Part shown: positions 1,734 through 18,257 of the stretch, piece by piece
How positions within the stretch are numbered: the stretch's first letter is position 1
Layout of the letters: every line of letters starts with the position of its first letter
NCBI GenBank assembly: GCA_963795085.1
Contig: CAWCFX010000006.1
Span: forward strand, 544,001 to 608,000
DNA from: an uncultured Gemmatimonadales bacterium
Lineage (GTDB): Bacteria; Gemmatimonadota; Gemmatimonadetes; Gemmatimonadales; GWC2-71-9
Direction of reading: 5' to 3'
Length of the DNA: 64,000 nt
The notes under the pieces: generated by a model
What the model was told of the DNA's origin: nothing
The model's database searches: none
What the model saw: only the letters and a program-made list of their open reading frames with translations
Position numbers and translations under genes: made by a program

Positions 1734-3071
1734 CTACGACGCCGCGGTCGGGGCCGGCGGCGCTCCGCGGGCAATCGCGAAGGCCTTCTGCATGTGAGGG
1801 GGCATTTCGTCCGACTCGGGTGGTTCGCCCGCCGCGTCCATGATCTGGGTGAGGTCCACCCGGTCGTACCCGCCCGACAGCAGCACCACGAACCGCTCCC
1901 GGAGCAACGGGATCTGGCGGGCCCGGCTGATGATGTTGTTGGCGTCCTTCCGCTCCAGAATGCCGTACCAGTTGTAGATCATCTTGAAAATCGAATACAT
2001 CGGGTGCTTGATCCGGCGCTCGTAGGGCGCCAGCAGCTCGGCCGAGAACCGGTCCTGGCGGAAGCAGTCGAGAATACACTCCGAGGCGTACACCCCCCCC
2101 CGCATGGCCAGGGTCACCCCGGCCGAGAAGATCGGGTCGATGAACATCGAAGCATCCCCCACCAGGACGAAGCCGTCCCCCACGAACCGCTCGTTCAGGT
2201 AGGAGATGTTGGAAATAGTCTGCATCTCCATGGTCTGCTCCGCGCCGGCGACCCATTCGCGTACCCGGTCGCAGCTGGCGACCGCCTTGTCATAGCGCTC
2301 CTGGGGGGTATCGCCCAGGCTCTTGGCGAACTTGGCATCGAGCACCACGCCGACACTGACCACGTCGTCGGCGAGCGGGATGTACCAGACCCAGCCGCCA
2401 TCAATGGTATGGATGTCGGTGGTGGTCGAGGTGGGCATGATCTCGCCCACCGTCACCACTTCGGCCGGGTCCCGCCGGATGCCGCCCTTCACGTGGGTGA
2501 AATGAGAGATCTTGTTCAGCGTCGGATCCGGCTTGCGCCACCCCATCTTCCGGGCCACGAGGCAGTCCCTGCCGGAGGCATCCACCACCACCCGGGCGTT
2601 GATCCGGTGCGGTTCGGCGCCATTGGGCCCGGCCATCACGCCCACCGCCTGGTCCCCCTCGAAGACGACTTCCTTGACCGACCATTCCTCGCGAACCTCG
2701 GCGCCGCGCTTACGGGCGTGGTTCAGCAGGATCTCGTCAAACCGGGCCCGCTCCACGTGGTAGGTCCAGGGCCGCAGGAAACACTCCGGGTACTCGGCGG
2801 TCAGCAGTTTGACGTCTTCCTTCGCGTTGAACATCCCGAACATGATGCCCTGCTTGATGACAAACCCGGCCTGCTCGAGATCGGCCGAGATGCCGAGGCG
2901 TTCCCAGATTTCCCAGGCGCCGGGCAGCAGCGACTCGCCGATGTGGAAGCGGGGAAATTTCTCCCGCTCCAGCACCAGGACCTTGAGCCCTTCGGGCGCG
3001 AGCATGGCCGCCGTGCTGGAGCCGCCCGGGCCCCCGCCGATGACCACGACATCGAAAGTTTCCTGTTTCAT
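1734..3071 (-). CDS. Flavin-dependent halogenase (PltA/PrnC-like)
   Basis: GGGPGG FAD motif, FPRFHIGESLLP, putative catalytic Lys in GFVIKQG, WVWYIPL (WxWxIP), GDASMFIDPIFSAGV. Confidence 0.85.
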   Translation of the reverse strand: MKQETFDVVVIGGGPGGSSTAAMLAPEGLKVLVLEREKFPRFHIGESLLPGAWEIWERLGISADLEQAGFVIKQGIMFGMFNAKEDVKLLTAEYPECFLRPWTYHVERARFDEILLNHARKRGAEVREEWSVKEVVFEGDQAVGVMAGPNGAEPHRINARVVVDASGRDCLVARKMGWRKPDPTLNKISHFTHVKGGIRRDPAEVVTVGEIMPTSTTTDIHTIDGGWVWYIPLADDVVSVGVVLDAKFAKSLGDTPQERYDKAVASCDRVREWVAGAEQTMEMQTISNISYLNERFVGDGFVLVGDASMFIDPIFSAGVTLAMRGGVYASECILDCFRQDRFSAELLAPYERRIKHPMYSIFKMIYNWYGILERKDANNIISRARQIPLLRERFVVLLSGGYDRVDLTQIMDAAGEPPESDEMPPHMQKAFAIARGAPPAPTAAS

Positions 3072-3120: not shown

Positions 3121-4476
3121 CTACCCCGCTCTACTGACGGGTTCCACGATCTTGAGCGCGGACAGTGATTCCGACTTGTCCGAGATGAACTCGTCATCGG
3201 TCTCCGGGTTGAGACCGGCCTCCCGCACCATCCGCCGCAGATTATCGGACCGGTTGGTAGTCGCCGCGGCCGTCAGGGCCAGGCCCAGCTCGTTGGGGGG
3301 CATGGACAGGATGAAGTTCCGGACCCCGGCGGCATCGATGCCTTCGCCGCCGAAATCGCCGAAGGCGAGCAGCCGGGAGAACCCGTAGTACTCGAGCAGC
3401 CGGCGGCGGAACATCTCCCGGAAAAACGGTTCCCGGGCCGGCTTTTTCATGGCCTGGTCGATGGCCCAGGTGCAGACCGTGGCGTTGTACATGCCGGTGG
3501 TCACCCCCTGGGAAAAGATCGGGTCCACGAACGAGGCGGCATCGCCGATGCAGAAATAGCCGTCGCCGACCACGTTTTCGGAGTAGTAGGAGTAGTCGGG
3601 CCTGAAGAAGAGCGAATCCGGCACGTAGGTGGCACCGGCCAGCAGGTCCCGCAGATAGGGAATGCCCGTCACGGTCCGGAGGAAGTACTCCTCCTGGGCC
3701 TTCTTGTTCATTCCCTTGGTGGCGTCGGTATTGATCACCAGCCCGATGCTGGTCGTGTCGCGCAGGATAATGTGCCACGCCCACCCGTCCTTGTAGGACA
3801 GGACAAAGGTGACCGGCCGGGCCTGGTAGACCTGGTTGGCCTCATACACCTCGCGGTCGGCGCCCAGGAAGCGGGCGTTCTTGAAATATCCCCACATGCC
3901 CAGGTACTTCCCGTCTGCGCTGACCCGGCGCCGGGCATTGGCCTGGCCCGCGATCACGCCGCTGATCCCGCTGGCGTCCACCACGTAGCGGGCGACGACA
4001 CTGCCCTCCGCGCTGCTCCCTCCGCGCCGATCCTCGTAATGCACCACGGGCGCGTCTCCCCGGCTCAGGTCCACCCGGCGCACCGTAACCTCCTCGTGGA
4101 CCTGGGCGCCCACCGACTCGGCGTGGCGAAGCAGGAGATGGTCGAAGCGGTCCCGCTCCACGTGCAGGGCGGCCCGCTGGACATACCCGAACCGGTCGAA
4201 CCGGATCTGCCGGATCTTGCCGTCCCACACCACGATCCCGCCCGCCTTGGTGACGAATCGCTCGGCATCCACTTTCGCGGTCACCCCCAGTGCTTCGGCG
4301 AACTTCCAGAAATGGGGGATCAGGCTCTCGCCCACCGTGGGGCGGGGATGCCGGGCCTTCTCCAGCAGCAGGGTCTCGTAGCCTGCCCGCGCCAGGAGGT
4401 TGGCCACGCTGCTGCCCGCTGGCCCGCCGCCGATCACGACGACATCGGCCCGGGATGGAATAGTGGTGGTCGTCAC
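3121..4476 (-). CDS. Second flavin-dependent halogenase-like protein
   Basis: Likely GTG start at 4476 (the ORF-track extension overlaps the porin gene). GGGPAG, RPTVGESLIP, FVTKAG Lys, variant WAWHII motif, GDAASFVDPIFSQGV. Confidence 0.8.
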   Translation of the reverse strand: MTTTTIPSRADVVVIGGGPAGSSVANLLARAGYETLLLEKARHPRPTVGESLIPHFWKFAEALGVTAKVDAERFVTKAGGIVVWDGKIRQIRFDRFGYVQRAALHVERDRFDHLLLRHAESVGAQVHEEVTVRRVDLSRGDAPVVHYEDRRGGSSAEGSVVARYVVDASGISGVIAGQANARRRVSADGKYLGMWGYFKNARFLGADREVYEANQVYQARPVTFVLSYKDGWAWHIILRDTTSIGLVINTDATKGMNKKAQEEYFLRTVTGIPYLRDLLAGATYVPDSLFFRPDYSYYSENVVGDGYFCIGDAASFVDPIFSQGVTTGMYNATVCTWAIDQAMKKPAREPFFREMFRRRLLEYYGFSRLLAFGDFGGEGIDAAGVRNFILSMPPNELGLALTAAATTNRSDNLRRMVREAGLNPETDDEFISDKSESLSALKIVEPVSRAG

Positions 4477-4490
4477 GATAGCTCGTCCGT

Positions 4491-5954
4491 TCAGAATTTC
4501 AGGGTGACTTCCGCGTACCCGAACTGCCCGGACCGGTCCGGGTAGATCGCCTGGACGACCTCGCCGGCAAACGCGTGGCCGGCATAGACGTGGAACGTGG
4601 CCAGGGCGCTGGGATCCCAGGTTACCCCGAGATCGACCAGGGTTGCCAACTGGGTTTCGCCGTTGGAGGGCCTGCCGCCGTACCCGAAGTTGCCCCGGCG
4701 GCGGAACGCGCCCGATCCGGCATACCAGAGATCGGCCGCCTCGGCGAGTTCCAGTTTTCGCAGGTCGGTCCGCAGGGATAGCTTGCCGGGCACCGGCCGG
4801 AGGATCGCCTGCAGGAACAGCTCCTTCGTGTTCATGGCATTGAAGAATGGAAACTGGGCATACTGCCGCACCGTGGTGAGCGCAGGGAAAAAGGTCCGGT
4901 GGGTGCCGTCCCCGGCATCGTCGTCGCCGGAGCCCTGGAAGTAGCCGGCGCGGATCCAGGGCCGCCAGGGCGCCCGTGGCTGGTAGCCAGCCTCGGCCGC
5001 GACGGCCCAGGCCCGATGCCGGAGCATACCCCACTCGCCGGTCTGCGCCGTTCCCCAGAGCATCAGGTCGGCGTCGCCACCTCCCAGCTTCATGGCGCGG
5101 GCGATGTGCCCCCCAAACATCGAGATGCCAATATCCTCTCCGTCGGCAGCCCGCGCCGGAGCGGGGCGGTTGTCTACTTTGGTCACCGTGTCCGCGGCAT
5201 TCCGGGAGTCACGGTAGCCGTAGAAGAAGAGGCGAACGTCGGTGCGGTCCAGCAGGGCACCCGGCTTGAGGGTAAGACTGCCGCCGCCGATCGATACTTC
5301 GCCGATCCGGTCCATGCCTTCCAGCTCGAAGCCGCCCTGCCGCGGATAGAGCAGAAGCGCAGTGGCATTAACGGGGCCCCGGGTGACCGAGGCCTGCCCC
5401 CCATCGAAGCTGCGTCCCCCGTGGCTGAAGGCGAAGGTCCCGATCAGCCGCGCGGAGAGCCGGACCCGCTTGAGCCAGTCAATCGTCGGATCCCCGCTCA
5501 TCACCTCGAGGCCGTCCAGGTATTCCATGCGGCCCAGCCGCAGAAACGTCTCGGGCCGGCTGGCGCGCAGCGTCACATACGCCTGGTTGAGAAATACCCG
5601 GCTGATATCCCGCTCCTGGTGCTGCGCGAAGTAGGTGGCCCCGAGTCCCAGGTCGCCGGCGGGCGGTGCAGCGGTCGCGTCATCGGGCAGGCCGAGCAAC
5701 GTGGAGTTCTGGAGATCCACCCGGGCATCCAGCCAGCGGGGCGCCCGGTAATTCAGCACCAGGTTGGTCCGGGCGGCCAGAAACCCGTAGCTGTTGTCAG
5801 CTGCGGACGCGGCGGGCTCGAACCAGTTCCATTGTTCGTACCGGACCCGGGAGGTCGCGTTCAGACGCACTTCATGGCGCGCCGGTGCCGGTGTCTGCGC
5901 CAGAGCCTGTCCGGCCAGGACACCCGCCATGGACAGCAACGCCAGGGTACGCAT
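4491..5954 (-). CDS. Outer-membrane beta-barrel, alginate-export (AlgE-like) family
   Basis: Signal peptide MRTLALLSMAGVLAGQALA, R-x-R-Y-E first strand, LNQAYV, RLGR.E, GRSFDG, GSGDDDAGDG, C-terminal YAEVTLKF; TGATG coupling with the ABC ATPase. Confidence 0.75.
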   Translation of the reverse strand: MRTLALLSMAGVLAGQALAQTPAPARHEVRLNATSRVRYEQWNWFEPAASAADNSYGFLAARTNLVLNYRAPRWLDARVDLQNSTLLGLPDDATAAPPAGDLGLGATYFAQHQERDISRVFLNQAYVTLRASRPETFLRLGRMEYLDGLEVMSGDPTIDWLKRVRLSARLIGTFAFSHGGRSFDGGQASVTRGPVNATALLLYPRQGGFELEGMDRIGEVSIGGGSLTLKPGALLDRTDVRLFFYGYRDSRNAADTVTKVDNRPAPARAADGEDIGISMFGGHIARAMKLGGGDADLMLWGTAQTGEWGMLRHRAWAVAAEAGYQPRAPWRPWIRAGYFQGSGDDDAGDGTHRTFFPALTTVRQYAQFPFFNAMNTKELFLQAILRPVPGKLSLRTDLRKLELAEAADLWYAGSGAFRRRGNFGYGGRPSNGETQLATLVDLGVTWDPSALATFHVYAGHAFAGEVVQAIYPDRSGQFGYAEVTLKF

Positions 5955-6793
5955 CAGCGGGCCCCCGTTGAACCAGGTGGAGCCTTCGGGTGGGTCGCTT
6001 CGTGCTGCTCTTCCAGCCGGTGGACCATGGTTTCCCAGGGGAGGGCCGATGGCGACAGGCCCAGCTCGGTCAGCACCCTCTCCTTGAGAGCCACCAGCAT
6101 GAGGCTGGACATGATCCGGGGCTGCGGAATATTTACTTCGACGACGCACTTGACCCGGCCGGGCCGAGGCGTCATGACATAGATCCGGTCGGCGAGGTGA
6201 AGAGCTTCCTCGACATCGTGGGTCACCAGCAGGCAGGTATGCCGGTCCTGCGCCAGGATGCGGAGGAGCTCGCCGCGCATCTTCATCTTGGTCAGTGCAT
6301 CCAGCGCCCCGAATGGCTCGTCCATGTAGAGCAGGTCAGGCTTGGCCATCAGGGCGCGGGCCACCTCCACCCGCTGCAGCATACCGCCGGAGAGCTCGTG
6401 GGGATAGCGGCCTTCGAAGCCTTCGAGGCCGACCAGTTCGATGTAGTGCCGGGTCAACCGCTGCCGCTCGGCATCCGGACTGCCGTTGAGTGCCAGCTCC
6501 AGGTTGCGGCCCACCGTCATCCACGGAAAGACCGACCCCCGCTGGGTGATCATGATACCCCGGCGGCTGGGCTCCCCCACCGGGCGGCCGCCCACCAGCA
6601 CCTCGCCCCGGTCCGGCTGGTCGAACCCGGCGATCATGTTGAGCAGGGTGGATTTGCCGCAGCCCGATGCGCCGACGATGGCGACGAACTCCCCGTCCGC
6701 CACGGTGAGCGACATGTCCTCGAGAGCGGAGATCTGGCCCTCCGAGGTGGGAAAAGTCTTGTAGACGCCCTGGACAGAAATACTAGCGCCCAT
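5954..6793 (-). CDS. ABC transporter ATP-binding protein, NitT/TauT family
   Basis: Walker A GASGCGKST, signature LSGGMLQR, Walker B YMDEPFGALD, VTHD. Confidence 0.95.
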   Translation of the reverse strand: MGASISVQGVYKTFPTSEGQISALEDMSLTVADGEFVAIVGASGCGKSTLLNMIAGFDQPDRGEVLVGGRPVGEPSRRGIMITQRGSVFPWMTVGRNLELALNGSPDAERQRLTRHYIELVGLEGFEGRYPHELSGGMLQRVEVARALMAKPDLLYMDEPFGALDALTKMKMRGELLRILAQDRHTCLLVTHDVEEALHLADRIYVMTPRPGRVKCVVEVNIPQPRIMSSLMLVALKERVLTELGLSPSALPWETMVHRLEEQHEATHPKAPPGSTGAR

Positions 6794-7529
6794 TGGCGTA
6801 CCTCCAGCGAACTTCTTTCAGGGTCTCCAGTTGGCGCATCAGGATATCCAGCAGGAACCCGATCACGCCGATGATCACCATGCCCGCGACCACGAGGTCA
6901 TAGCGCATCCCGGCATTCCGGGAGTCGATGATCAGGTATCCCAGCCCCGAATTGATGGCGACCATCTCGGCCGCAACCACCACCAGCCAGGCCACACCCA
7001 GCGCCACCCGCATTCCGGTAATGATCTGGGGAAGGGCCCCCGGGAAGATCACGGTGGTGAACAGCTTGAGCCCGGAAATGCCGAAATTCTTGGCGGCCCG
7101 GATGTACTGCCGCTCCACCAGGTGCACACCGGCCGTGGTGGACACCGCGATGGGGAAAAAGGAGGCCAGGAAGATCAGGAAGATGGGCGAGGCATCGCTG
7201 ACGCCGAACCAGAGGATCGCGAGCGGAATCCAGGCGATGGGCGAGATCGGCCGCAGCATCTGGATCAGGGGATTGAGCGCGCTGAAGGCCCGGCCGTACC
7301 AGCCCATGGCGATCCCGATGGGTACCGCGGTCAGCACCGCGAGACCGTAGCCGGCCGTCACCCGGTAGAGCGAGGCGGCGATATGCTGGGTCAGCGTGCC
7401 CTCTTCCCAGAGCGCACGGATCCCGGTCACCACCGCCAGCGGGGTCGGAAAGATGATGCTGCCGCTGGCCGCGATCCACCAGAGACCCAGCAGCGCGGCG
7501 ATGACCAGAACCGGCAGCAGCCGGTTCAT
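6783..7529 (-). CDS. ABC transporter permease, NitT/TauT family
   Basis: LRPISPIAWIPLAILWFG, EAA-like loop YIRAAKNFG, WLVVVAAEM..NSGLGYLI. Confidence 0.95.
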   Translation of the reverse strand: MNRLLPVLVIAALLGLWWIAASGSIIFPTPLAVVTGIRALWEEGTLTQHIAASLYRVTAGYGLAVLTAVPIGIAMGWYGRAFSALNPLIQMLRPISPIAWIPLAILWFGVSDASPIFLIFLASFFPIAVSTTAGVHLVERQYIRAAKNFGISGLKLFTTVIFPGALPQIITGMRVALGVAWLVVVAAEMVAINSGLGYLIIDSRNAGMRYDLVVAGMVIIGVIGFLLDILMRQLETLKEVRWRYANGR

Positions 7530-8695
7530 GGCAGCGACTGGCTGAGATCCACCGGCCTGGCGTTCTTCATGAACGTCTCGTCAATGTAGGTCTGGTAGGG
7601 GATCTCGTGGGTGATGATCCCGGCCTCCAGCGACAGCTTCATCAGTTCCTCGAATTCGGCGTGCACCAGGTTGAGGTCCCCGTAGGTCACCCGGTCCGCG
7701 GGCCGCTCCATCACCCAGCGGATCAGGTCGAAGGCCTGGTTGAACATGGACTTGTCCGACGCAATCCGGGCGGCCGTGACGCGGTTCTCCGGGCTGGTTT
7801 CCAGCCACTGCCCGGCCGCCAGCACGTGATCCACCAGCAACTGCACCGTCTCGGGATCTTCGTCAATCAGTTCCTGCCGCACCGTCAGGACGCAGCAGAT
7901 GTAGGTCGGCCATTCGTTCCGGGTCATGTGCAGGATCCGGGCGTAGCCGTCCATTTCCGAGCGGGCGCCGAACGGCTCCCCCGTGGCGTACGCATCCACC
8001 GCGTTGGCCAGCAGGGCGGCGGGCATGTCGGGCGGGGCGATCTCGACCATTTCGATGTCCGCATCCACCAGCCCGTGCTCACGCATCAGCCGGCGGACGA
8101 AGATATGGTCCACCGCGAACCGGCTGGGAATCGCCACCCGCTTCCCGCGGAGATCCCCGAAGGTGCGGTAGGGCGAGTCCTTCTTGACCATGATCACCGC
8201 GCCGGACCGGTGCCCCAGTGCCACCACCTTGACCGGGACCCCCTTGTCGGCCAGGTCCATTGCCATCGGCGCCAGCATCATGGCCACCTTGAGCCGCCCG
8301 GCCACCAGGGCCTCCTTCAACTCGGGCCACCCGCTGTAGCGGACATAGGTCGCGATCTGGGGCACCCGCGCGGCCAGCGACTCGGCCTGCTCCGCCGTGG
8401 GCATGTCCATCCCGGGCATTCCCGCCATGGGACCGCCCGAAGTGTCCATGCCATCCGCCATGTTGATCGGCTCACCTTCGGTCGTCATCGCCCTACAGGC
8501 GATCGGAATGGTGAGGTTTCAGGTAACCGGTAACGCGCCGATCTCGAGCAACTCGCCCGCGCCTTTGGTCGTCCCGGGGCGGTCCTGTCCCCGCCGGTAG
8601 GCGACCGTGATGAACAGGGCCCAGCCGAGAATTGCCGCGATCACCAGCGGCCTGCGGTACCGCTGCCAGTACCGGGAAATGCTTGCGCTCGCCAT
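7526..8695 (-). CDS. ABC substrate-binding protein (NMT1/NitT-type) with in-frame TGA at codon 59; candidate selenoprotein
   Basis: ORFs 8519-8785 and 7526-8488 share a frame and are separated only by TGA at 8519-8521 (..LEIGALPVT*NLTIPIACRAMTTEG..). The upstream part supplies the TM anchor; the downstream part has GWPELKEAL, DLRGKRVAIPSRF, GEPF and YICCVL. Confidence 0.75.
8487..8503 (-). promoter_or_regulatory. Candidate bacterial SECIS hairpin
   Basis: mRNA reads UGA-aaccucaccauuccg-AUCGCC-UGUAG-GGCGAU: a perfect 6-bp stem starting 15 nt after the UGA, with a G-containing apical loop. Confidence 0.6.
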
Positions 8696-9048: not shown

Positions 9049-10197
9049 ATGGATTTCTCCTGGTCGAGCGAACAGCTCGAGTTCAGGCAGACGGTCGTTG
9101 ATTTCGCGCGGAAAGCCCTCCAGGACGACCTGATCGCGCGGGACCGGTCGGCGACGTTTTCCCGCCCGCTCTGGAGCCGTTTGGGGGAGTTCGGCATCCT
9201 GGGCCTGCCCTTTCCCGAAGAATTCGGCGGGGCGGGCAGCGATATCCTGACCACCATCCTGGCGATGGAGGCCCTGGGCTACGGGTGCAAGGACAACGGC
9301 CTGCTCTTCGGCATCGCGGCCCAGATGTGGAGCGTCCAGATGCCGATCTTCAAGTTCGGCACCCCGGAAGCCCGGGCAAAGTACCTGCCCCGCCTCAATT
9401 CGGGAGAATGGATCGGGGCCCACGGGATGAGCGAGCCCGACAGCGGGTCGGACGCATTTGCGCTGCGGACCACCGCCGACCGGCGGGGCGACAGCTATGT
9501 CCTCAACGGCACCAAGACCTTCGTCAGCAACGGTCCCTCGGCGGATCTCTTCCTGGTATTTGCCACCCTGGACCGGACCAAGGGTTTCCTGGGCCTCACC
9601 GGCTTCCTGGTCGAGCGCACGACCCCCGGCCTCAAGGTGAGCAAGGAGATCGAGAAGATGGGGCTGCGCACCTCCCCGATGGCCGAGGTGATCATGGAGG
9701 ATTGCGTCATCCCGGTGGAGAACCGGATCGGGCGGGAGGGGCGCGGAGGGGCGGTCTTCAACGATTCCATGGAATGGGAGCGGGGCTGTATCCTCGCCAG
9801 CTACCTCGGGTCCATGGAACGCCAGCTGGAGTCCTGCGTGCGCCATTCCCAGGAGCGGAAACAGTTCGGCCAGGCGATCGGCCAGTTCCAGTCGGTGGCC
9901 AACAAGATGGTGGACATGAAAGTGCGGCTGGAGACGGCCCGCCTCATCCTGTACAAGGCGGCGTGGAGCAAACAGCAGCAGGGCAAGCATGCCGGTGAGG
10001 ACGCGGCGATTGCCAAGCTCTATCTCAGCGAAGCGTGGGTCAAATCCTGCCTCGATGCCGTCCAGATCCATGGAGGCTATGGATTCACAACCGAGTACGA
10101 GGTCGAGCGGGACCTCCGGGATTCCATCGGCGGTACCCTCTACTCGGGGACATCGGAGATCCAGCGGACCCTGATCGCGCGGCAGCTCGGGTTGTAG
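9049..10197 (+). CDS. L-prolyl-[carrier protein] dehydrogenase (acyl-CoA dehydrogenase family, PltE/RedW/AnaB-like)
   Basis: ACAD fold (SEPDSGSD, LNGTKTFVSNG, KMGLR, RKQFGQAIGQFQ) plus subfamily hallmarks recognised from AnaB/PltE: MDFSW start, LGYGCKDNGL, FNDSMEWER, and YSGTSEIQ instead of YEGT. Confidence 0.82.
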   Translation: MDFSWSSEQLEFRQTVVDFARKALQDDLIARDRSATFSRPLWSRLGEFGILGLPFPEEFGGAGSDILTTILAMEALGYGCKDNGLLFGIAAQMWSVQMPIFKFGTPEARAKYLPRLNSGEWIGAHGMSEPDSGSDAFALRTTADRRGDSYVLNGTKTFVSNGPSADLFLVFATLDRTKGFLGLTGFLVERTTPGLKVSKEIEKMGLRTSPMAEVIMEDCVIPVENRIGREGRGGAVFNDSMEWERGCILASYLGSMERQLESCVRHSQERKQFGQAIGQFQSVANKMVDMKVRLETARLILYKAAWSKQQQGKHAGEDAAIAKLYLSEAWVKSCLDAVQIHGGYGFTTEYEVERDLRDSIGGTLYSGTSEIQRTLIARQLGL

Positions 10198-10397
10198 TGC
10201 GTGTTGGAGTATCGCAACATGCGGGAAACCCCGAGCCCTTGCATGACCTGGCTTTGGTTTCTCAAGTTATTGTCTCAAATCGCTTTACCTCAGATGCCGC
10301 CGGCTGTGGCGAAGTGGCACGGCGGTAGCAGGCAGGTAGAGCTTTCCGGCCCGCGGGCCGCCTCCTGGACGTCAATCGAATGCATCGGAGCAGCAAC

Positions 10398-12902
10398 ATG
10401 ACGGTGGGCAGTCTCACGGCCTCCCTGGGCGACCGGGTACGTACCAGCCCGGAATGGCTGGCCATCCTGCGGCTGGCGGGTTTCACCGTCCAGCTGGGGC
10501 TGGGCATCCTGGTGATCCGGGAATTCTCCCTGGAGGGTCCCACCTTCTACACCATGATCCTGCTGGCGGCAGTCGGGTTCTTCGTGAACGCCGTGCTGCC
10601 CCGGGCCTACCGGCAGGCCTGGTTCATCCTGGTCTCGCTGGTGGCGATCGGGATGGTGTTCGGGGTGGGAGACGGGCTCTGGCTGGTCGCGGTGGGCCTG
10701 GGTCTGATCGGCCTCTGCCACCTGCCGGTCAACTGGTGGCTCCGGGTGGCCATTATTCTGTCGGCGGCGGCGGTGCTGGCGTTCACCCGGATCGGCTGGC
10801 TGGGGGCGCCGTTTTCGATGGGCATCTGGCCCATCCTGGGCTCCATGTTCATGTTCCGGCTGATGGTGTACCTGCACCACATCAAGCACAATCCCAAGGT
10901 CACCGCGGGCCGGTCGCTGGCCTACTTCTTCATGTTGCCGAACATCTCGTTTCCCCTCTTTCCGGTGGTGGATTACAAGACCTTCGACTCGGTCTACTAC
11001 GACCAGGAGCCGAACGCCATCTACCAGGCCGGGCTCCGGTACATCGCCCGGGGCCTGCTGCACCTGGTCACCTACCGGTTCATCTATTACTACGTGGCGC
11101 GGGACCCGGCCGAGGTCACCAATCTCGGGGAGCTGCTGACCTACGTGGTCTCCACCTTCCTGATTTACGTCCGCGTCTCCGGCCAGTTCCATATCATCGT
11201 GGGGGTGCTCCACCTGTTCGGGTGGCGGATGCCCCCGGCCAACAACCTCTACTACCTGGCCACCAGCTTCACCGAGGTCTGGCGGCGGAACAACATCTAC
11301 TGGAAGGACTTCATGATGAAGCTGGCGTACTATCCCAGCTTCTTCAAACTCCGCGGCCGGGGCGGCAGCATCGCGCTCATCGGCGCCACGATCATGGTGT
11401 TCCTGCTGACGTGGCTGCTCCACTCCTACCAGTGGTTCTGGATCCGGGGCGAGTTTCCGCTGACCGCCACCGACGGCCTGTTCTGGGGCCTGATCGGGGG
11501 ATTCATGCTGGTGGAAATGCTGCGCGACACCCGCAAGGGCCCGGCTGCCCGGGTCCCGGTCCGCCGAGGGTGGAGCGCCAGCCGGGCCTTCCGGACGGTC
11601 GGGTTCTTTCTGCTGATGTCAACGCTCTGGGCGCTGTGGGACAGTCAGTCCATCGGTGATTTTATTTCGCTGTGGGCAGTGGCGACGCGATTCGACGGAG
11701 AGACCCTGCTCCGGATCGGCCTGCTCCTGGCGGCGGCCCTCGCCATTACCGGGTGGCCGTGGACGGTGCAAACCCTTCAGAAAGAGGAGGGACAGCAGCC
11801 GCTCTGGCGCCGGCAGGATGTCCAGACCGTCTTCGTGTGCACCGGCCTGCTGGCTATCGCCCAGCCCGGCGTTACCAATCTGGTGGCGCCCTCGGTCACC
11901 GAGTTCGCCCAGTCGCTGCGACAGACCAGGCTCAACGCCCGGGACGCCGCCTCCCAGCACCGGGGCTACTACGAGCAGCTCAACGTGGCGGCCGGCAACC
12001 TGGGCGGCGGCGAACTCCAGGCGGTGAACGAGGAGCGGCCCGCCGACTGGGTCCCGCTGACCGAAACCGCCGTGTACCGGGAACTGGAAGCGTCCTTCCT
12101 TGGCGGCGAGCTGGTGCCCGGATCGAGCACCGAGTTCAAGGGGGAGACCCTGAGCGTGAACCCGGCCGGCCTCCGGGACCGGGACTACGCGGTCCAGAAG
12201 CCGGCGGAGACCTACCGGATCGCCGTGATGGGGCCCTCCGACGTCATGGGCGCCGGCGTCGCCGATTCCCAGACGTTCGAGAATCTGCTGGAAGACCGGC
12301 TCAACCGGGAGCGGGTCGGCGGGCGGCGGTACGAGAGCATCAACTTCGGGGTGGTGTCCTTCAGCATCCTGCAGCAGATGCAGCTGCTGGAAGAGCGGGC
12401 GCTGCGGTACGACCCCGACATGGTGATCATCTCGTATCACGCGATCTCCGAAGCCCGGTTCGCCTTCCAGTACCTGGCCAACCGGGTGCGGTTCGGCCAG
12501 CCGGTGCCCCACCCCGAGCTGCGGGAGATCGCCGAGCGGGCCGGCGTGAAGCAGGGCATGGAGCAGCCGGACGCGTTCCGGAGGCTCAAGCCGTACGGCG
12601 ATGAACTGGTCCGGTGGTCGCTGGACCGGGTGGCCGGCATGGCGAAGGCCCGCGGCATCCAGCTGGTCCTGTTCATTCGGGACATGCCCGGCGAGATCTC
12701 CGACTCCACGCCCCCCGTCCTGGCATACGCGGACAGCCTGGGGTACGCCGTGGCCGATACCCGCGACGCCTTCGCCGGGCGGGATCCCAATACGCTCCTG
12801 CTGGCCGCCTGGGACAAGCATCCCAACGCACTGGGCCACCGGCTCACCGCCGAGCGCCTGTACGAAGAGCTGGTTGTGCGCCAATCCCTCCTCAAGCCCT
12901 GA
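10398..12902 (+). CDS. MBOAT O-acyltransferase fused to C-terminal SGNH domain (copy 1)
   Basis: Multi-TM N-terminus, SFTEVWRRNNIYWKDFMMKLAYYP, catalytic His in LTWLLHSY; C-terminal RIAVMGPSDVMGAGV, NFGV, DPDMVI, DKHPNALGH. GGAG RBS before ATG 10398. Confidence 0.8.
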   Translation: MTVGSLTASLGDRVRTSPEWLAILRLAGFTVQLGLGILVIREFSLEGPTFYTMILLAAVGFFVNAVLPRAYRQAWFILVSLVAIGMVFGVGDGLWLVAVGLGLIGLCHLPVNWWLRVAIILSAAAVLAFTRIGWLGAPFSMGIWPILGSMFMFRLMVYLHHIKHNPKVTAGRSLAYFFMLPNISFPLFPVVDYKTFDSVYYDQEPNAIYQAGLRYIARGLLHLVTYRFIYYYVARDPAEVTNLGELLTYVVSTFLIYVRVSGQFHIIVGVLHLFGWRMPPANNLYYLATSFTEVWRRNNIYWKDFMMKLAYYPSFFKLRGRGGSIALIGATIMVFLLTWLLHSYQWFWIRGEFPLTATDGLFWGLIGGFMLVEMLRDTRKGPAARVPVRRGWSASRAFRTVGFFLLMSTLWALWDSQSIGDFISLWAVATRFDGETLLRIGLLLAAALAITGWPWTVQTLQKEEGQQPLWRRQDVQTVFVCTGLLAIAQPGVTNLVAPSVTEFAQSLRQTRLNARDAASQHRGYYEQLNVAAGNLGGGELQAVNEERPADWVPLTETAVYRELEASFLGGELVPGSSTEFKGETLSVNPAGLRDRDYAVQKPAETYRIAVMGPSDVMGAGVADSQTFENLLEDRLNRERVGGRRYESINFGVVSFSILQQMQLLEERALRYDPDMVIISYHAISEARFAFQYLANRVRFGQPVPHPELREIAERAGVKQGMEQPDAFRRLKPYGDELVRWSLDRVAGMAKARGIQLVLFIRDMPGEISDSTPPVLAYADSLGYAVADTRDAFAGRDPNTLLLAAWDKHPNALGHRLTAERLYEELVVRQSLLKP

Positions 12903-12912
12903 AGGCGCGCCT

Positions 12913-15444
12913 ATGTCAGCCGGTTCGATAGCGATGGCGGAAAACTCCGGGGCAGCCCGGGTCGGGTGGGTGGCGGCCGGGCGGATGCTGGCCGCAGTGG
13001 TGCAGCTCGGCCTCATCGTGCTGGTGATTCGCCAGTTCGAGATTGAAGGGACCGGGTTCTACCGCCTCTCCCTGCTGGCGGCCGGAGGCTTCGCGGTCCA
13101 TGCCCTGCTGCCGCTCCGGCTGCGGCTGCCTTTCTTCCTCGCGCTATCCCTGGCCGGCATCCTGCTGGTGATGGGCATCGTCAACGGGCTCTGGATCCTC
13201 GGCCTGGGCGCGCTGCTCATCGTGCTGAGCCACATTCCGGTCCGCTTCAGCGTGCGGATCGCCATCGTGCTCGCCGCCGCCGTGGTGCTCGGCCTGTTCC
13301 GGTCCCAGCTGCTGCCGGGCGGGATCCCCGGGGCCGTCTGGCCGATCCTGGCCTCGATGTTCATGTTCCGGCTGGCCATCTACCTGTATGATCTCACCCA
13401 CGGGGTGGAGACCGGGCCGCCAGCCCGGGTGCTGGCGTACTTCTTCATGATCCCGAACGTCGCCTTTCCGCTGTTCCCCGTGGTGGATTACAAGACCTTC
13501 GCCCGCACCTATTACAATGACGAGGACTGGCGGATCTACCAGCGGGGCCTCAAGTGGATCGTGCGGGGCCTGACCCACCTGATCGCGTACCGCTTCGTCT
13601 ATCACTACATGGCCATGGATCTGGCCGCGGTCCGGACCGGTCCCGACGTGGCCCAGTACATCTTCAGCTCGTTCATGCTGTACCTGCGGGTCTCCGGCAT
13701 GTACCACCTCTCGATCGGCATGCTCCACCTGTTCGGGTTCCGGCTGCCGGAGACCAACCACTACTGGCTCTTCTGCCAGAGCTTCACCGATCTCTGGCGC
13801 CGGATGAACATCTATTTCAAGGACTTCATGATGAAGCTGGTGTATTATCCCAGCTACTTCAAAGTCCGCAAGCGGGGCATGCGGCAGGGAATCGCCCTGT
13901 CCCTCCTGATGGTATTCTTTGTGACCTGGGCCCTCCACGTGGTCCAGTGGTTCTGGCTCCGGGGCAGCCTCCTCCTCACCTGGCAGGACAGCCTGTTCTA
14001 CGTGGTACTGGGCGCCCTGGTGATCCGGCAGGCCATGAAGGACGCGGCCCCCGGCCGCAAGCGGGCACTGGACACTGGAGAGGCCCGGTGGAGCCCCCGC
14101 CGCGCAGTCAACGGGCTGCTCACGATGGGAATCCTGATGACGGCCTGGTCCTTCTGGACGGCCGACTCGGTGGACCAGTGGCTGGCAATGTTCCAGGGCA
14201 TGGGCGAATGGCCCCGGAACGGCACCCTCGTCCTGGCCAGCGTGCTGGCCGTGTACCTGGCCCTCGCCGGCCTTCCCTGGACGTCGCCCGAACTGGCTGA
14301 CCGGAAAGAGGGCACCCTGGTCGGCCCGGCCCTGCTCACGGTCGGCACCCTGGGCGGCCTGCTGTTCCTCGCCGAGCCGCGGGTGCACGAGCGGTTCACG
14401 CCGCGGGGGGTCGAACTGGTCCGATCGCTCAAGCAGAACAAGCTCAACCAGCGGGACCAGGCCGTGCTGCTGCGCGGGTACTATGAGAAAGTGGATAACA
14501 AGACCACACTGACCAGCCAGGTCTGGGAACTGGGACAGGGAACGCCCGAGGACATCCGGATCACCAGTACCCCGGCCTTCCGGGAACGCGCCGATTTCCT
14601 GGGCGGGGAGCTGGTGCCGTCGTCCCGGATCGTGTTCAAGAACGAGCAATTTGTCGCCAACCGCTGGGGCATGCACGACCAGGAGTACGAACGGGCCAAG
14701 CCGGCCGGCACCCACCGGACGGCGCTGCTGGGCCCTTCCGACGTGATGGGCCCGGGCGTGCTGGCGTCGGAAACCTTCGAGGCCCTGGCCGAGGCCCGTC
14801 TCAACCAGCACGGCGGTAAGTTCCAGCGCTACGAGATTCTCAATTTCGGGGTGGCCGCGTTCACCGTCCTCCAGCAGGCCGCCATGCTGGACGACCGGGG
14901 CCTCGGTTTCGACCCCGACCTGATCGTGATGACGTTCCACCCCGGGTCCGACCCGCCCACGACGCTGCGCTACCTGGTGGACGTCGTCCGGGCCGGCAGA
15001 CCGGTTCCCTACCCCGACCTCGCCGCTATCGTTCGGCGGGCCGGGATCGACAGCGGCATGACCGACGGCGTGGCCAAGCGGAAGACCTGGCCCCACATCC
15101 AGGAAATCATGCGCTGGAGCTTCCGGCATATTGCGGAAGCCGCGAAGTCCCGTAATATCCCGGTCGCGCTGCTGGTGACTGACGCCATCACCGAGCCATC
15201 GGCGCCGGACCAGCCGCTCATCCGCTACGCGGACAGCCTGGGCTTTACGATCCTGGACCTGCGCAGCGCGCACGTCGGGCACGAGCCCAGGACGGTAATC
15301 CTGGCCGAGAATGACCGGCATCCCAACAAGCTGGGCCACCGGCTCCTGGGCGAGGCGCTGTACCGCAAACTGATGGCACTCGGCGACACCCTGGGCCTGG
15401 GACTGGGCCCGCAACCATCGCAACTCAACCAGGAGGGGAAGTGA
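12913..15444 (+). CDS. MBOAT O-acyltransferase fused to C-terminal SGNH domain (copy 2, paralog)
   Basis: SFTDLWRRMNIYFKDFMMKLVYYP, VTWALHVV; LLGPSDVMGPGV, NFGV, DRHPNKLGH; clearly collinear with copy 1. Confidence 0.8.
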   Translation: MSAGSIAMAENSGAARVGWVAAGRMLAAVVQLGLIVLVIRQFEIEGTGFYRLSLLAAGGFAVHALLPLRLRLPFFLALSLAGILLVMGIVNGLWILGLGALLIVLSHIPVRFSVRIAIVLAAAVVLGLFRSQLLPGGIPGAVWPILASMFMFRLAIYLYDLTHGVETGPPARVLAYFFMIPNVAFPLFPVVDYKTFARTYYNDEDWRIYQRGLKWIVRGLTHLIAYRFVYHYMAMDLAAVRTGPDVAQYIFSSFMLYLRVSGMYHLSIGMLHLFGFRLPETNHYWLFCQSFTDLWRRMNIYFKDFMMKLVYYPSYFKVRKRGMRQGIALSLLMVFFVTWALHVVQWFWLRGSLLLTWQDSLFYVVLGALVIRQAMKDAAPGRKRALDTGEARWSPRRAVNGLLTMGILMTAWSFWTADSVDQWLAMFQGMGEWPRNGTLVLASVLAVYLALAGLPWTSPELADRKEGTLVGPALLTVGTLGGLLFLAEPRVHERFTPRGVELVRSLKQNKLNQRDQAVLLRGYYEKVDNKTTLTSQVWELGQGTPEDIRITSTPAFRERADFLGGELVPSSRIVFKNEQFVANRWGMHDQEYERAKPAGTHRTALLGPSDVMGPGVLASETFEALAEARLNQHGGKFQRYEILNFGVAAFTVLQQAAMLDDRGLGFDPDLIVMTFHPGSDPPTTLRYLVDVVRAGRPVPYPDLAAIVRRAGIDSGMTDGVAKRKTWPHIQEIMRWSFRHIAEAAKSRNIPVALLVTDAITEPSAPDQPLIRYADSLGFTILDLRSAHVGHEPRTVILAENDRHPNKLGHRLLGEALYRKLMALGDTLGLGLGPQPSQLNQEGK

Positions 15445-15704
15445 CCAACGAAGAGATCATCCGGACGGTGAAGGAGTACATACTCCAGACCTTCCTTCCG
15501 GGCGAGGATCCCAAGGCGCTGACCGAAAGCACCCAGCTCATCACGGGCGGCGTGCTGGATTCCCTGGCCACGCTCGAGCTGGTGTCCTTCCTGGAACAAA
15601 AGTACGGCATCGAACTGCAGGCCCACGAGGTGGATGCCGCCAACCTCGGCACCCTGACCGCCATCGCCGGGCTGGTGCAGACCAAGGTGGGCGCCGGGAA
15701 GTGA
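15441..15704 (+). CDS. Stand-alone acyl/peptidyl carrier protein (PltL/DltC-like)
   Basis: 87 aa, acidic, GVLDSL phosphopantetheine motif; overlaps both neighbours by 4 nt. Confidence 0.92.
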   Translation: MTNEEIIRTVKEYILQTFLPGEDPKALTESTQLITGGVLDSLATLELVSFLEQKYGIELQAHEVDAANLGTLTAIAGLVQTKVGAGK

Positions 15705-17263
15705 GCGCCGCCACGCTGCACGCCCAGCTCGACGCCACGGTTCGGCGGTTCCCCGCGCGAACCGCGGTGGAGGATCCCGGCAAGGGGCAGTTGACCTATG
15801 CTGAACTGGGTGAGCTGTCGGACCGGCTCCGGGACCGGCTGGCGCTCCTCGGCGTGGAGCCGGGGGACCGGGTCGGACTGTACATGGCCAAGTCGCTGGA
15901 CGCGATCGTCACCATTTTCGGCGCCCTCAAGACGGGGGCGGCCTACGTGCCCGTGGATCCGGGCGCCCCGCCGGCCCGCTGCGCCTACATTCTCAACAAC
16001 TGCTCGGTCCGGGTCATCGTCACGGAGCGGCGGCTGAGCCAGGCTCTCACCGAGGAACTCCAGAAACTGGGAAGCGTCCCGCCCCTCCTGCTGCTGGACG
16101 ACGCGGCCGAGGCAAACCTCCCCGTTGCCGCGATGCTGGACCGGGAAGCCGGGACCCGCCCCGCGCCGGCGGCGGCCACCAGGGACCCCGGCCCCGACGG
16201 GCTGGCCTACATCCTGTACACTTCCGGATCCACCGGCAAACCCAAGGGCGTGATGCTCACGCACCGCTGCGCGGTGAGTTATGTCGACTGGTGTTCGGAC
16301 GTGTTCCAGCCCACGGAGGCAGACCGGTTCTCTTCGCACGCGCCGCTGCACTTCGACCTGTCCATCCTGGACCTCTACGTCCCCCTCAAGCACGGGGCCA
16401 CGCTGGTGCTGATCGGCGAGGAACTGGGCAAGGACCCGCTCAACCTCGCACCGTTGATCGCCGAGAAGCGAATCACCGTCTGGTATTCCACGCCCTCGAT
16501 CCTGAGCCTGCTGGCCCAGTACGGCAAGCTGTCCCGCTACGATTACTCGGCGCTGCGCTTTGTGTTCTTCGCCGGCGAAGTCTTCCCGGTGCCGCAGCTC
16601 CGCGCCCTCAAGGCACTGTGGCCGCATCCCCGGTACTTCAACCTGTACGGGCCCACCGAGACCAACGTGTGCACCTACTACGAGGTGCCCGCCGAGATCC
16701 CGGCCGGCCGCACCGAGCCGTTTCCGATCGGGAAGACGTGCGAGCACCTGGCCTGCCTGGTGATCGACCAGGACGGGAGCGTGGTGCCGAAAGGCGAGGA
16801 AGGCGAGCTGGTGGTGTGGGGACCCGGAGTCATGACCGGCTACTGGAACCTGGCGGAGCAGAACGCCGCCGCCTTCATCGAGATCGGCGGCAAGCGCTGG
16901 TACCACACGGGGGATCTGGTGGTCGAGGAGCCCAGCGGCGACTACATCTTCCACGGCCGCCGGGACCGGATGGTCAAGCGGCGGGGCTACCGGGTGGAAC
17001 TGGGCGAAATCGAAGCGGGCCTCGCCACCCATCCCCAGGCGAAAGAGGTGGCGGTGGTGGCGCTGCCGGACAAGGATGCCGGCGTCAAGATCCGGGCGTT
17101 TCTCTCGATCAAGGACGGCGTCAAGCCCAGCATCATCGAGATGAAGTCGTTCTCGATGGACAAACTGCCCAAGTACATGGTGCCCGATACCTTCTCGTTC
17201 CTCGAGGCGCTGCCCCGGACCTCGACCGACAAGATCGACTACCAGACGCTCAAGACTCTCTGA
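15701..17263 (+). CDS. Stand-alone amino-acid adenylation enzyme, probable L-proline:PCP ligase (PltF/RedM/CloN4-like)
   Basis: YILYTSGSTGKPKG, FDLS, NLYGPTETNVC, YHTGD, GYRVELGEIE, PRTSTDKID. Pocket residues read by eye as D-L-L-Y-F-A-L-V-C-K. Confidence 0.85.
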   Translation: MSAATLHAQLDATVRRFPARTAVEDPGKGQLTYAELGELSDRLRDRLALLGVEPGDRVGLYMAKSLDAIVTIFGALKTGAAYVPVDPGAPPARCAYILNNCSVRVIVTERRLSQALTEELQKLGSVPPLLLLDDAAEANLPVAAMLDREAGTRPAPAAATRDPGPDGLAYILYTSGSTGKPKGVMLTHRCAVSYVDWCSDVFQPTEADRFSSHAPLHFDLSILDLYVPLKHGATLVLIGEELGKDPLNLAPLIAEKRITVWYSTPSILSLLAQYGKLSRYDYSALRFVFFAGEVFPVPQLRALKALWPHPRYFNLYGPTETNVCTYYEVPAEIPAGRTEPFPIGKTCEHLACLVIDQDGSVVPKGEEGELVVWGPGVMTGYWNLAEQNAAAFIEIGGKRWYHTGDLVVEEPSGDYIFHGRRDRMVKRRGYRVELGEIEAGLATHPQAKEVAVVALPDKDAGVKIRAFLSIKDGVKPSIIEMKSFSMDKLPKYMVPDTFSFLEALPRTSTDKIDYQTLKTL

Positions 17264-17282: not shown

Positions 17283-18257
17283 CTACCGGTCGATCCACCG
17301 CTCTTCGCCCGCCAGCGCCCTCGGCCGTATCCAGAAATACCAGAGCCGGGGCGCCTTTTTCATCCGGTCCTTCAGGTCTTCCGCCACCTCGTGCACCCGG
17401 CCCCGAACCCGCAACGCGGCGCCCGCCGCCGGCTCGGCGGGCTGGTACCCGAACTGCTGCATCAGCGGTCCCGCCGTCCATTCCACCAGGCGCACCTGTT
17501 CCGGCGTCAACTGGTTCTTCCAGGATCCCAGCCGGTCCCGGCTCAACGATCCCTGGGCCCGCTCGAACCAGGGCCGGTCGGCCCGGGCCGGCTGCTTCAC
17601 CTCCAGCATGGCCGGGCTGAAAGTCTCGCCGACGAAGCGGCAGACCTCAGCCAGGCGCTGCTCCGGCTGCTCGACCAGGTCCTCGTAGCGAATCCGCATG
17701 AAGCGGGGATCGTCCCGGGAGGCCTCCGCGGCCGCCGTGAGGCTGGCCCAGAGCCGGCCGTTGGCCGCGGCGCTCTTCCGGCCCCACGGCACGTTGAAGA
17801 GCGAGGCCGTCACGTCCCGGGGGTCGCGAAGCAGGTGGATGACCCGGGCGCCCGGGTACCAGGCGAGCAGGTCGGCCGTATTCCAGGCGTGGTGGGGGGT
17901 CTTCTCGCCCGGCCGCACCTTGCCCATCGATTCGGCGTAGAACGCAAGGATCGCCGCGAAAAACGCGGGGTAGCTGGTGCCCTGGGCCATCAACCGGTCC
18001 GCCAGGGCGGGCAGGTCGATCTTCAGCCGCTGCATCCGGGAAGTTGCGGTGTAGCTCGCGACGAGCCGCTTGCGGTTCTCCGGATCGGCCAGGTCGCCGA
18101 ACGCCCGCCGCCGCAGGTGGACGTAATAGAAAAAATAGGTCTCGTCGCAGAGCCCTATGCGGGGGTGCCGGTTGAGCATCGCCCGGAGCAGCGTCGTCCC
18201 GCTCCGGGGAGCGCCCACGATGAAAATGGGCTGGAACGCGGCCAGGTCCATGGTCAC
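17283..18257 (-). CDS. Sulfotransferase (PAPS-dependent)
   Basis: PIFIVGAPRSGTTLL (5'-PSB), GEKTP, HLLRDPRDVTAS (3'-PB), RYEDLV. Confidence 0.9.
   Translation of the reverse strand: MTMDLAAFQPIFIVGAPRSGTTLLRAMLNRHPRIGLCDETYFFYYVHLRRRAFGDLADPENRKRLVASYTATSRMQRLKIDLPALADRLMAQGTSYPAFFAAILAFYAESMGKVRPGEKTPHHAWNTADLLAWYPGARVIHLLRDPRDVTASLFNVPWGRKSAAANGRLWASLTAAAEASRDDPRFMRIRYEDLVEQPEQRLAEVCRFVGETFSPAMLEVKQPARADRPWFERAQGSLSRDRLGSWKNQLTPEQVRLVEWTAGPLMQQFGYQPAEPAAGAALRVRGRVHEVAEDLKDRMKKAPRLWYFWIRPRALAGEERWIDR

Follow-up and report, generated by a model that had tools for sequence, protein, structure and literature searches.

A predicted proline-to-pyrrole carrier module linked to Dlt-like fused acyltransferases in an uncultured Gemmatimonadales bacterium: a possible route for acylating the cell surface

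Introduction

Why would a carrier-protein module for proline, of the kind known from thiotemplated pyrrole biosynthesis, stand in one run of genes with membrane acyltransferases of the Dlt type? The question is raised by a 64,000-nucleotide stretch of DNA from an uncultured Gemmatimonadales bacterium (positions 544,001 to 608,000 of contig CAWCFX010000006.1, assembly GCA_963795085.1; the whole stretch is called the window). The source genome comprises 3.89 Mb in 6 contigs and is 93% complete; the window DNA is rich in GC (65-70%), and its closest relatives are Gemmatimonadota metagenome-assembled genomes. Five genes of the window, here called the cassette, encode a dehydrogenase, two MBOAT-SGNH fusion proteins, a carrier protein and an adenylation enzyme. 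Sequence, fold and conserved linkage give good support to the view that they form a proline-to-pyrrole module wired to a Dlt-like fused acyltransferase. We go further, with slightly better than even confidence, in reading them as a Dlt-like, carrier-protein-dependent acylation route in which a proline-derived cargo would be relayed to an acceptor outside the cytoplasm.

A first-pass annotation, made by a model from the letters of the window, had proposed that a pyrrole building block is esterified onto a surface glycan. The proline-type module and its linkage to MBOAT-SGNH proteins stood up to analysis, while the pyrrole state of the cargo, its passage across the membrane and a glycan as acceptor are what we infer. 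The annotation also knew of no described system of this kind. Our literature search (subscription-only papers lay outside its scope) found no work linking a prolyl or pyrrolyl carrier, an adenylation enzyme, and MBOAT-SGNH proteins or pyrrole acylation of lipopolysaccharide.

Results

The cassette consists of the following genes:

9049-10197, plus strand: dehydrogenase of the acyl-CoA dehydrogenase family, of prolyl-carrier-protein type by similarity, 382 amino acids (three Acyl-CoA_dh domains in Pfam)
10380-12902, plus strand: MBOAT-SGNH fusion 1, 840 amino acids from the first ATG (fold match and invariant residues)
12913-15444, plus strand: MBOAT-SGNH fusion 2, a paralogue of fusion 1
15441-15704, plus strand: carrier protein, 87 amino acids, with the phosphopantetheine serine in LDSL (PF00550)
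15701-17263, plus strand: stand-alone adenylation enzyme, predicted to be specific for L-proline (TIGR01733 and pocket code)

All five were found where the first-pass annotation had placed them. The overlapping stop and start codons that it had reported for the last three genes are GTGA overlaps, which join fusion 2, the carrier and the adenylation gene; 10 nucleotides separate fusion 1 from fusion 2. The database gene call begins fusion 1 at 10398 (834 amino acids). In the list of open reading frames (ORFs) fusion 2 begins at 12601; because this start overlaps fusion 1 by 302 nucleotides, the ATG at 12913 is the likelier one. Pfam searches of 56 window ORFs returned no ketosynthase, condensation or thioesterase domain, as had been claimed, and glycan genes, said to adjoin the cassette over about 47 kb, occupy most of 17.3-64 kb. 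No RNA family of Rfam was found in the window, and promoter-like and terminator-like sites did not exceed shuffled expectation.

The adenylation enzyme scored 378.8 bits against TIGR01733 (cut-off 317.4). Its ten pocket positions, placed by GrsA numbering in an alignment to the PltF structure 6o6e, read DLLYFALVCK, compared with DLLYLALVCK in PltF (9/10 identical). When the pocket region alone was compared, PltF (6o6e) scored 133 bits, a second proline ligase 82.5, DltA chains 63-69 and LgrA 52. The window enzyme was then aligned with 51 ligase ORFs of 480-620 amino acids from related loci. Among these 52 sequences the PltF code occurred in 28 and the window code in 12; a further 8 had one or two substitutions, and the remaining 4 were unrelated second ligases. 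The enzyme is predicted to be specific for L-proline. The likeness to the proline code had been noted at first pass, and the re-derived pocket, being PltF-like and not DltA-like, argues against D-alanine or another non-proline substrate.

The carrier matched PF00550 just above its cut-off (21.1 bits against 20.8). Residues D40 and S41 were invariant in 34 orthologues, and in most loci the carrier gene adjoins a fusion gene. The best NCBIfam match of the carrier, an ornithine-lipid acyl carrier protein (98.7 bits, cut-off 130), raised an ornithine-lipid pathway as a candidate. It was dropped because enzymes of the OlsH/OlsI types (a GH3-like enzyme and an alpha/beta hydrolase; PMC12493201, available text) do not occur in the window, and that same text mentions no MBOAT protein.

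The dehydrogenase scored highest in the PDB with AnaB (4irn, 469 bits), followed by 6cxt (340) and PigA (5zw0, 330), with ordinary acyl-CoA dehydrogenases at 297 bits or less. Three strings that the first-pass annotation had quoted as hallmarks of the AnaB/PltE type, LGYGCKDNGL, SMEWER and YSGTSEIQ, are present and identical in AnaB. In NCBIfam the best models were PigA (454.9 bits, cut-off 500) and RedW (421.9 bits, cut-off 650), and the family ranked after them scored 310.7; because the PigA and RedW scores both lie below the equivalog cut-off, neither name was given to the enzyme. The next-best paralogue in the same genome reached 237 bits against the RedW model, compared with 422 for the cassette dehydrogenase. 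The best 120 homologues were environmental proteins (57-100% identity) with no named enzyme among them, and 14 control genomes held no member of the family above the cut-off. In a quick tree without characterised references, with the G057 row included, the cassette dehydrogenases stood apart from the other paralogues of the genome on a long and fully supported branch; dehydrogenases from loci that lack a fusion gene were nested within the cassette family, and phyla were interleaved. By sequence comparison the enzyme is closer to characterised prolyl-carrier-protein dehydrogenases (AnaB, PigA and RedW, by scores) than to the ordinary acyl-CoA dehydrogenases with which it might have grouped. Its oxidation of a prolyl-S-carrier would most likely go on to the pyrrole.

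The fusion proteins had been called MBOAT-SGNH at first pass from the letters alone. NCBIfam, like Pfam, gave no MBOAT match for either protein, so a structure model was needed; the Pfam Lipase_GDSL_2 match was sub-threshold (22.6 bits, cut-off 32.9). An AlphaFold model of fusion 1, built from a 25-sequence alignment, had a mean predicted local distance difference test (pLDDT) of 83.2 and a predicted template modelling score of 0.75. Residues 47-427 of the model matched DltB best (Z 21.0, root-mean-square deviation 4.3 Å, 358 residues aligned), ahead of PORCN (Z 18.6), HHAT (Z 18.0) and LPCAT3, and Foldseek gave an E value of 1.4e-7 for the model against DltB. Residues 605-833 had an SGNH fold (TesA, Z 15.8), and CgnD matched residues 545-825 with Z 21.0. 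The model thus indicates an MBOAT fold and an SGNH domain in one chain, and the first-pass identity holds by fold and by conserved residues, though not by any Pfam MBOAT domain.

Invariant in the 25 sequences were H265, H342, G523-Y524-Y525-E526, S614, N649, D806 and H808. H342, within TWLLHSYQWFW, is the putative catalytic histidine of the MBOAT fold (25/25). The SGNH block residues were all invariant, comprising the block I serine (S614, within GPS), N649 of block III and D806/H808 of block V. Fusion 2, one of the 25 sequences, keeps every invariant catalytic column and shares 42.6% identity with fusion 1 across 810 residues (BLASTP). The RGYYE sequence lies in a low-confidence loop of the model (517-542), just past the last membrane helix (473-493). 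G-Y-Y-E is followed by any residue and then L, I or V, showing the tyrosine and spacing of the FXYXXF motif with different residues in place of the flanking phenylalanines.

For residues 1-560 of the fusion, a complex with the carrier was predicted and compared with the best of three controls. The pair scored 0.57 and the best control 0.00; the runs shared at least 92% of contacts, with a partner pLDDT of at least 82. In calibration the mark was reached by 116/157 solved complexes and 2/215 mismatched pairs; at scores of 0.60 or less, where the present score falls, it was reached by 18/157 solved complexes and by both of the passing mismatches. The predicted complex lends weak support to docking of the carrier on the fusion, and the pass may mirror likeness only, because a DltB-DltC complex has been solved.

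The DltB-like fold raises plain D-alanylation of the Dlt type as an explanation. The DltA models of NCBIfam do match the ligase, at 284.4 and 273 bits. However, these scores are far under the cut-offs of 476 and 559.85, and the DltC model reached 24.5 bits on the carrier against a cut-off of 68. With a pocket matching PltF and a conserved prolyl-carrier dehydrogenase that would be left without a role, we give D-alanylation almost no credence.

Conservation was examined by a pattern scan for fusion relatives in a collection with one genome per species. The scan found 409 stretches encoding such relatives, and 77 loci were kept. The hosts belong to Gemmatimonadota, Acidobacteriota, Pseudomonadota (including Burkholderiales, Steroidobacter, Rhodoferax and Accumulibacter), Myxococcota, Rhodothermales, Methylomirabilota, Binatia and Anaerolineales; one of them, at locus L073, is cultured (Steroidobacter flavus CGMCC 1.10759). 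Forty loci were well flanked, with at least 5 kb on each side of the fusion. Carrier, ligase and dehydrogenase were all found at strict cut-offs in 29 of these, and 5 more had weaker or fragmented matches. The neighbourhood search that the first-pass annotation had recommended showed a complete unit in 29/40 loci and across phyla. When flanking ORFs were clustered, only the fusion, ligase, dehydrogenase and carrier were widely common to the loci; the remaining recurrent clusters were short ORFs, mostly antisense inside cassette genes. Two fusion copies were present in 12/77 loci, and L001-L003 hold orthologous second copies.

The reverse test covered 201 genomes of the same phylum, with thresholds of E ≤ 1e-90 for the dehydrogenase and E ≤ 1e-50 for the fusion. 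The dehydrogenase was found in 18 genomes (G057 being counted here and among the five without a fusion) and the fusion in 13. In all 13 fusion-positive genomes the dehydrogenase lay no more than a few kb from the fusion, on one contig with it. Four fusion-less exceptions were inspected: one (L099) has a nonribosomal peptide synthetase (NRPS), one (L098) has a GNAT gene in a glycan context, and two have no clear partner. It had been foreseen that cassettes might routinely lack the MBOAT genes and sit beside polyketide synthase (PKS) or NRPS genes; mostly they keep the MBOAT-SGNH gene, with an NRPS at 1/4 exceptions.

These data also bear on whether the trio of dehydrogenase, carrier and ligase is an ordinary supplier of NRPS or PKS starter units, with the MBOAT-SGNH genes as unrelated neighbours. 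Locus L099 is an arrangement of that kind, since a condensation-adenylation protein and a carrier adjoin its fusion-less trio. The supplier role is nevertheless very improbable for the window, where the 56 ORFs searched lack all three of the domains named above, given that the linkage to the fusion is tight across phyla and that these loci have a carrier family specific to them.

At L098 (genome G010) the dehydrogenase-ligase-carrier trio is followed by an Acetyltransf_6 (FemAB-like GNAT) gene and flanked by genes for a hexapeptide acetyltransferase, a polysaccharide deacetylase and a GDSL protein; this arrangement may attach the same acyl group by a cytoplasmic route instead. Genes for O-methyltransferases of the small-molecule type (Methyltransf_2 and/or its Dimerisation domain) stand among or beside those of the cassette in L012, L044 and L057, a hint that some lineages tailor the tethered ring further.

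Upstream of the cassette, on the other strand, lie genes that include two halogenases absent from the first-pass annotation:

1734-3071, minus strand: flavin-dependent halogenase 1, 445 amino acids, of the carrier-tethered-substrate type (Pfam Trp_halogenase)
3121-4476, minus strand: flavin-dependent halogenase 2, 451 amino acids from GTG 4476, divergent (PDB matches and motifs)
4491-6149, minus strand: outer-membrane porin of the Alginate_exp family, between the ABC genes and the halogenases
5954-8488, minus strand: ABC transporter, NitT/TauT-type importer (sulfonate/taurine/nitrate-like), in a tight array with the halogenases

Halogenase 1 matched 8zop (221 bits; no literature on this PDB entry was found), CndH (204), ChlB4 (183), PltA (181), Bmp2 (165-167) and Mpy16 (166), and halogenase 2 matched CndH (160), CmlS (158), Mpy16 (133) and PltA (123). 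We take the halogenase motif set to be GxGxxG, WxWxIP and FxxPxxSxG. All three motifs are present in halogenase 1 (GGGPGG, WVWYIP and FIDPIFSAG); halogenase 2, 34% identical to it, has GGGPAG and FVDPIFSQG, with WAWHII instead of WxWxIP. Orthologues of halogenase 1 (about 70% identity) stand beside the cassette in related loci. Halogenases at E ≤ 1e-40 were found in 10/201 genomes, namely 8/13 cassette-positive and 2/188 cassette-negative ones, counts that describe an association and not a statistic because related genomes are not independent. In 6 genomes a halogenase lies within about 4 kb of the dehydrogenase.

The halogenases matter for the state of the cargo. If the dehydrogenase acted like AnaB, the cargo would be a dehydroprolyl (pyrroline-carboxyl) group and no aromatic pyrrole would be formed. 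AnaB is indeed the closest enzyme, at 469 bits against 330-340 for the pyrrole-forming ones, and shares the hallmark strings. We nevertheless consider a pyrroline cargo unlikely. The linked halogenases belong to a class acting on carrier-tethered aromatic substrates, including pyrrolyl-S-carriers (PltA, Bmp2 and Mpy16), and a reactive cyclic imine would probably make a poor stable surface ester; two- or four-electron oxidation is not in itself predictable by sequence. Having halogenases near the cassette strengthens the pyrrole reading, and at least for this lineage their linkage speaks in favour of a tethered aromatic pyrrole.

Around the halogenases, an extracytoplasmic function (ECF) sigma factor and an RskA-type anti-sigma factor (325-1661, minus strand) lie directly downstream on the same strand and may regulate the array. 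In L003, too, the porin gene separates the halogenase genes from the dehydrogenase gene, and the ABC genes were unmatched in L001-L003. In L008 and L060 a gene of the Na+/H+-exchanger family adjoins the halogenase instead. A role of the porin and ABC array in halide or sulfur supply is speculation.

The acceptor, the weakest link of the proposal, was approached through the neighbours of the cassette. The scan comprised 130 immediate-neighbour ORFs at 70 loci, with 20 ORFs above 640 amino acids left out. Glycan-type neighbours included genes for sulfotransferase, carbamoyltransferase, Bac_transf, DegT, UDP-glucose dehydrogenase and GT2/GT4 proteins, as well as Polysacc_synt, pyruvyl transferase, WbqC and PL14. 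No ketosynthase or condensation domain was found in these 130 ORFs of up to 640 amino acids, and L053 has a thioesterase-carrier fragment as a neighbour. The sulfotransferase, GT2 and GMC genes downstream of the cassette are syntenic with it in L001-L003 and L034, a family-level clade, and in L058 a fusion and a carrier stand inside a glycan locus with no loader genes nearby. In this lineage the acceptor is presumably a glycan, and the neighbouring 47 kb would encode it.

The same chemistry and relay might instead serve a general envelope component, such as peptidoglycan, lipopolysaccharide or a membrane lipid. No acceptor-related gene is kept with the cassette across phyla, 48/70 loci have no clearly glycan-type immediate neighbour (manual count), and the interleaving of phyla in the quick tree suggests that the module has been transferred and can function in many hosts. 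Against this stand the syntenic genes of the family-level clade and the fusion-carrier pairs inside glycan loci elsewhere (L058), and we regard a general acceptor as somewhat unlikely.

In another alternative nothing would be transferred to a polymer: the SGNH domain would hydrolyse the acyl intermediate, and free (halo)pyrrole-2-carboxylic acid or a derivative would leave outside the cytoplasm. Simple release has to be weighed because the nearest SGNH structures are hydrolases; moreover, the cassette lacks a thioesterase, and its four genes travel as a self-contained unit in varied contexts. Yet glycan genes are frequent neighbours, the duplicate fusions are easier to explain with two acceptors, and the characterised bacterial MBOAT/SGNH pairs in the available text of PMC12148441 all transfer to polymers. 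Release and export, like a pyrroline cargo, therefore appears an unlikely outcome.

Several features of the surrounding DNA were recorded. A sulfotransferase gene (17283-18257, minus strand) is convergent with the adenylation gene at a distance of 19 nucleotides and syntenic in L001-L003. Sulfotransferase genes also adjoin the fusion in L058 and L070, and in L012 and L060 the cassette is flanked by genes related to 3'-phosphoadenosine-5'-phosphosulfate. The target glycan is perhaps a sulfated one. Overlapping long ORFs at 32881-36005 (plus strand) encode a FAD_binding_4/ALO oxidase and a short-chain dehydrogenase, a pair that we take to resemble a DprE1/DprE2-type epimerase. Glycosyltransferases of the GT-C type lie nearby (PMT_2, 29250-30920; DUF2298, 31221-33008; GT87, 40331-41653). 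The oxidase pair and the GT-C genes suggest periplasmic glycan assembly from polyprenyl-phospho-sugars. At 36867-40344 (minus strand) a 693-amino-acid CofD (2-phospho-L-lactate transferase) protein adjoins a MobA-like nucleotidyltransferase, which is unusual in a polysaccharide cluster. A membrane-anchored Sulfatase-domain protein, presumably of the LtaS/EptA type, is encoded at 48843-50699 (minus strand), with the domain starting at about residue 180; in L044 and L045 the fusion gene is flanked by genes for similar proteins, and in L064 by a shorter Sulfatase ORF.

Discussion

The following mechanism is proposed for the Dlt-like route. The adenylation enzyme would activate L-proline and load it on the 87-amino-acid carrier, and the flavoprotein dehydrogenase would convert the prolyl-S-carrier, most likely to a pyrrole-2-carboxyl-S-carrier. 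In this lineage one or both halogenases would probably halogenate the tethered ring. The carrier would dock at the cytoplasmic face of the MBOAT domain, where the invariant histidine could hand the acyl group to a tyrosine of the RGYYE loop, just past the last membrane helix. The acyl group would in this way cross the membrane, and the fused SGNH domain (Ser/Asp/His) would take it and esterify an acceptor outside the cytoplasm, here most likely a glycan from the adjoining locus. Two paralogous fusions may serve two acceptors or two positions. In its most specific form the proposal is tentative, and we lean against rather than towards it: in Gemmatimonadota a halogenated pyrrole-2-carboxyl group, assembled on the carrier in the manner of an antibiotic precursor, would be attached as an ester to a surface glycan bearing sulfate through a single-chain MBOAT/Tyr-shuttle/SGNH protein, with a non-halogenated form in at least 6 phyla of soil and water bacteria.

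Several observations weigh against the proposed route. At the loading step, the full-length ligase matches LgrA best in the PDB (402 bits, with PltF at 335). The dehydrogenase falls under both NCBIfam equivalog cut-offs, though PigA and RedW lead by more than 110 bits, and AnaB, its closest solved relative, stops at the two-electron product, pyrroline. At the transfer step, Pfam shows no MBOAT family in either fusion even at E ≤ 10, the GYYExL loop differs from the FXYXXF motif as published, and the structures nearest to the SGNH domain belong to esterases and thioesterases, TesA among them. The topology that we infer for the fusion drew no help from a hydropathy and positive-inside scan, which was uninformative for this fold. 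The genomic links are also incomplete. Six of the 40 well-flanked loci (L044, L045, L049, L051, L058 and L070) have no dehydrogenase match and no ligase above 141 bits within reach, 5 of the 18 dehydrogenase-positive genomes have no fusion (one of them with an NRPS beside the trio), and a clearly glycan-type immediate neighbour was counted manually in only 22/70 loci.

The nearest known system is Dlt (DltA, DltC, DltB, DltX and DltD), which likewise has a ligase and a small carrier as donor, an MBOAT protein for transfer and an SGNH protein as final transferase. It differs in its cargo, which is D-alanine in Dlt and predicted to be oxidised proline here, and in having neither the dehydrogenase nor the halogenases. 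The MBOAT and SGNH parts form one polypeptide here, and the hosts are diderm, whereas Dlt belongs to Firmicutes. No DltX was evident, small ORFs not having been searched; the in-chain RGYYE/GYYExL loop may replace it.

According to the available text of PMC12148441, bacterial MBOAT/SGNH systems relay the acyl group through the tyrosine of an FXYXXF motif, located in DltX in the Dlt pathway and at the MBOAT C-terminus in other systems; MBOAT and SGNH are separate proteins, and a carrier protein occurs only in the Dlt pathway. Because those systems have separate proteins and the FXYXXF motif, the family described here appears to be a fused, carrier-paired form with a related but non-identical tyrosine loop. 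PatA/PatB, AlgI/AlgJ/AlgX and related polymer O-acetyltransferases use acetyl-CoA with separate MBOAT and SGNH proteins and are stated to lack a carrier, in contrast to the carrier donor and fused chain here. In OatA/OafA a single chain likewise combines a membrane acyltransferase with an SGNH domain outside the cytoplasm, and a tyrosine serves as intermediate; their membrane part is, however, an AT3 domain using acetyl-CoA, and not an MBOAT.

On the loading side, the thiotemplated pyrrole systems (PltF/PltL/PltE with PltA; Bmp1-4; PigI/G/A; RedM/O/W) share with the cassette a stand-alone proline ligase with the same type of pocket code, a stand-alone carrier, an oxidase and halogenases acting on carrier-bound substrates. 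Their product passes to a PKS, an NRPS, a thioesterase or a cytoplasmic acyltransferase, whereas the only conserved partner here is the MBOAT-SGNH protein. The anatoxin-a enzymes AnaB/AnaC/AnaD include the closest solved relative of the dehydrogenase, but AnaB feeds a PKS, and none is encoded among the 56 window ORFs searched.

If the proposal is true, an aromatic and possibly halogenated heterocycle would join the acyl groups known from surface polymers (acetyl, D-alanyl, succinyl and others), where it could alter surface hydrophobicity, recognition by phages and predators, and the reactivity of soil organic matter. Carrier-dependent MBOAT relay would not be limited to the teichoic acids of Gram-positive bacteria. 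The cassette would represent the first carrier-fed MBOAT route outside Dlt and the first case of a bacterial envelope polymer decorated with an acyl group of natural-product type, and a large family of proteins of about 850 amino acids, now called "hypothetical" or "DltB", would gain a function.

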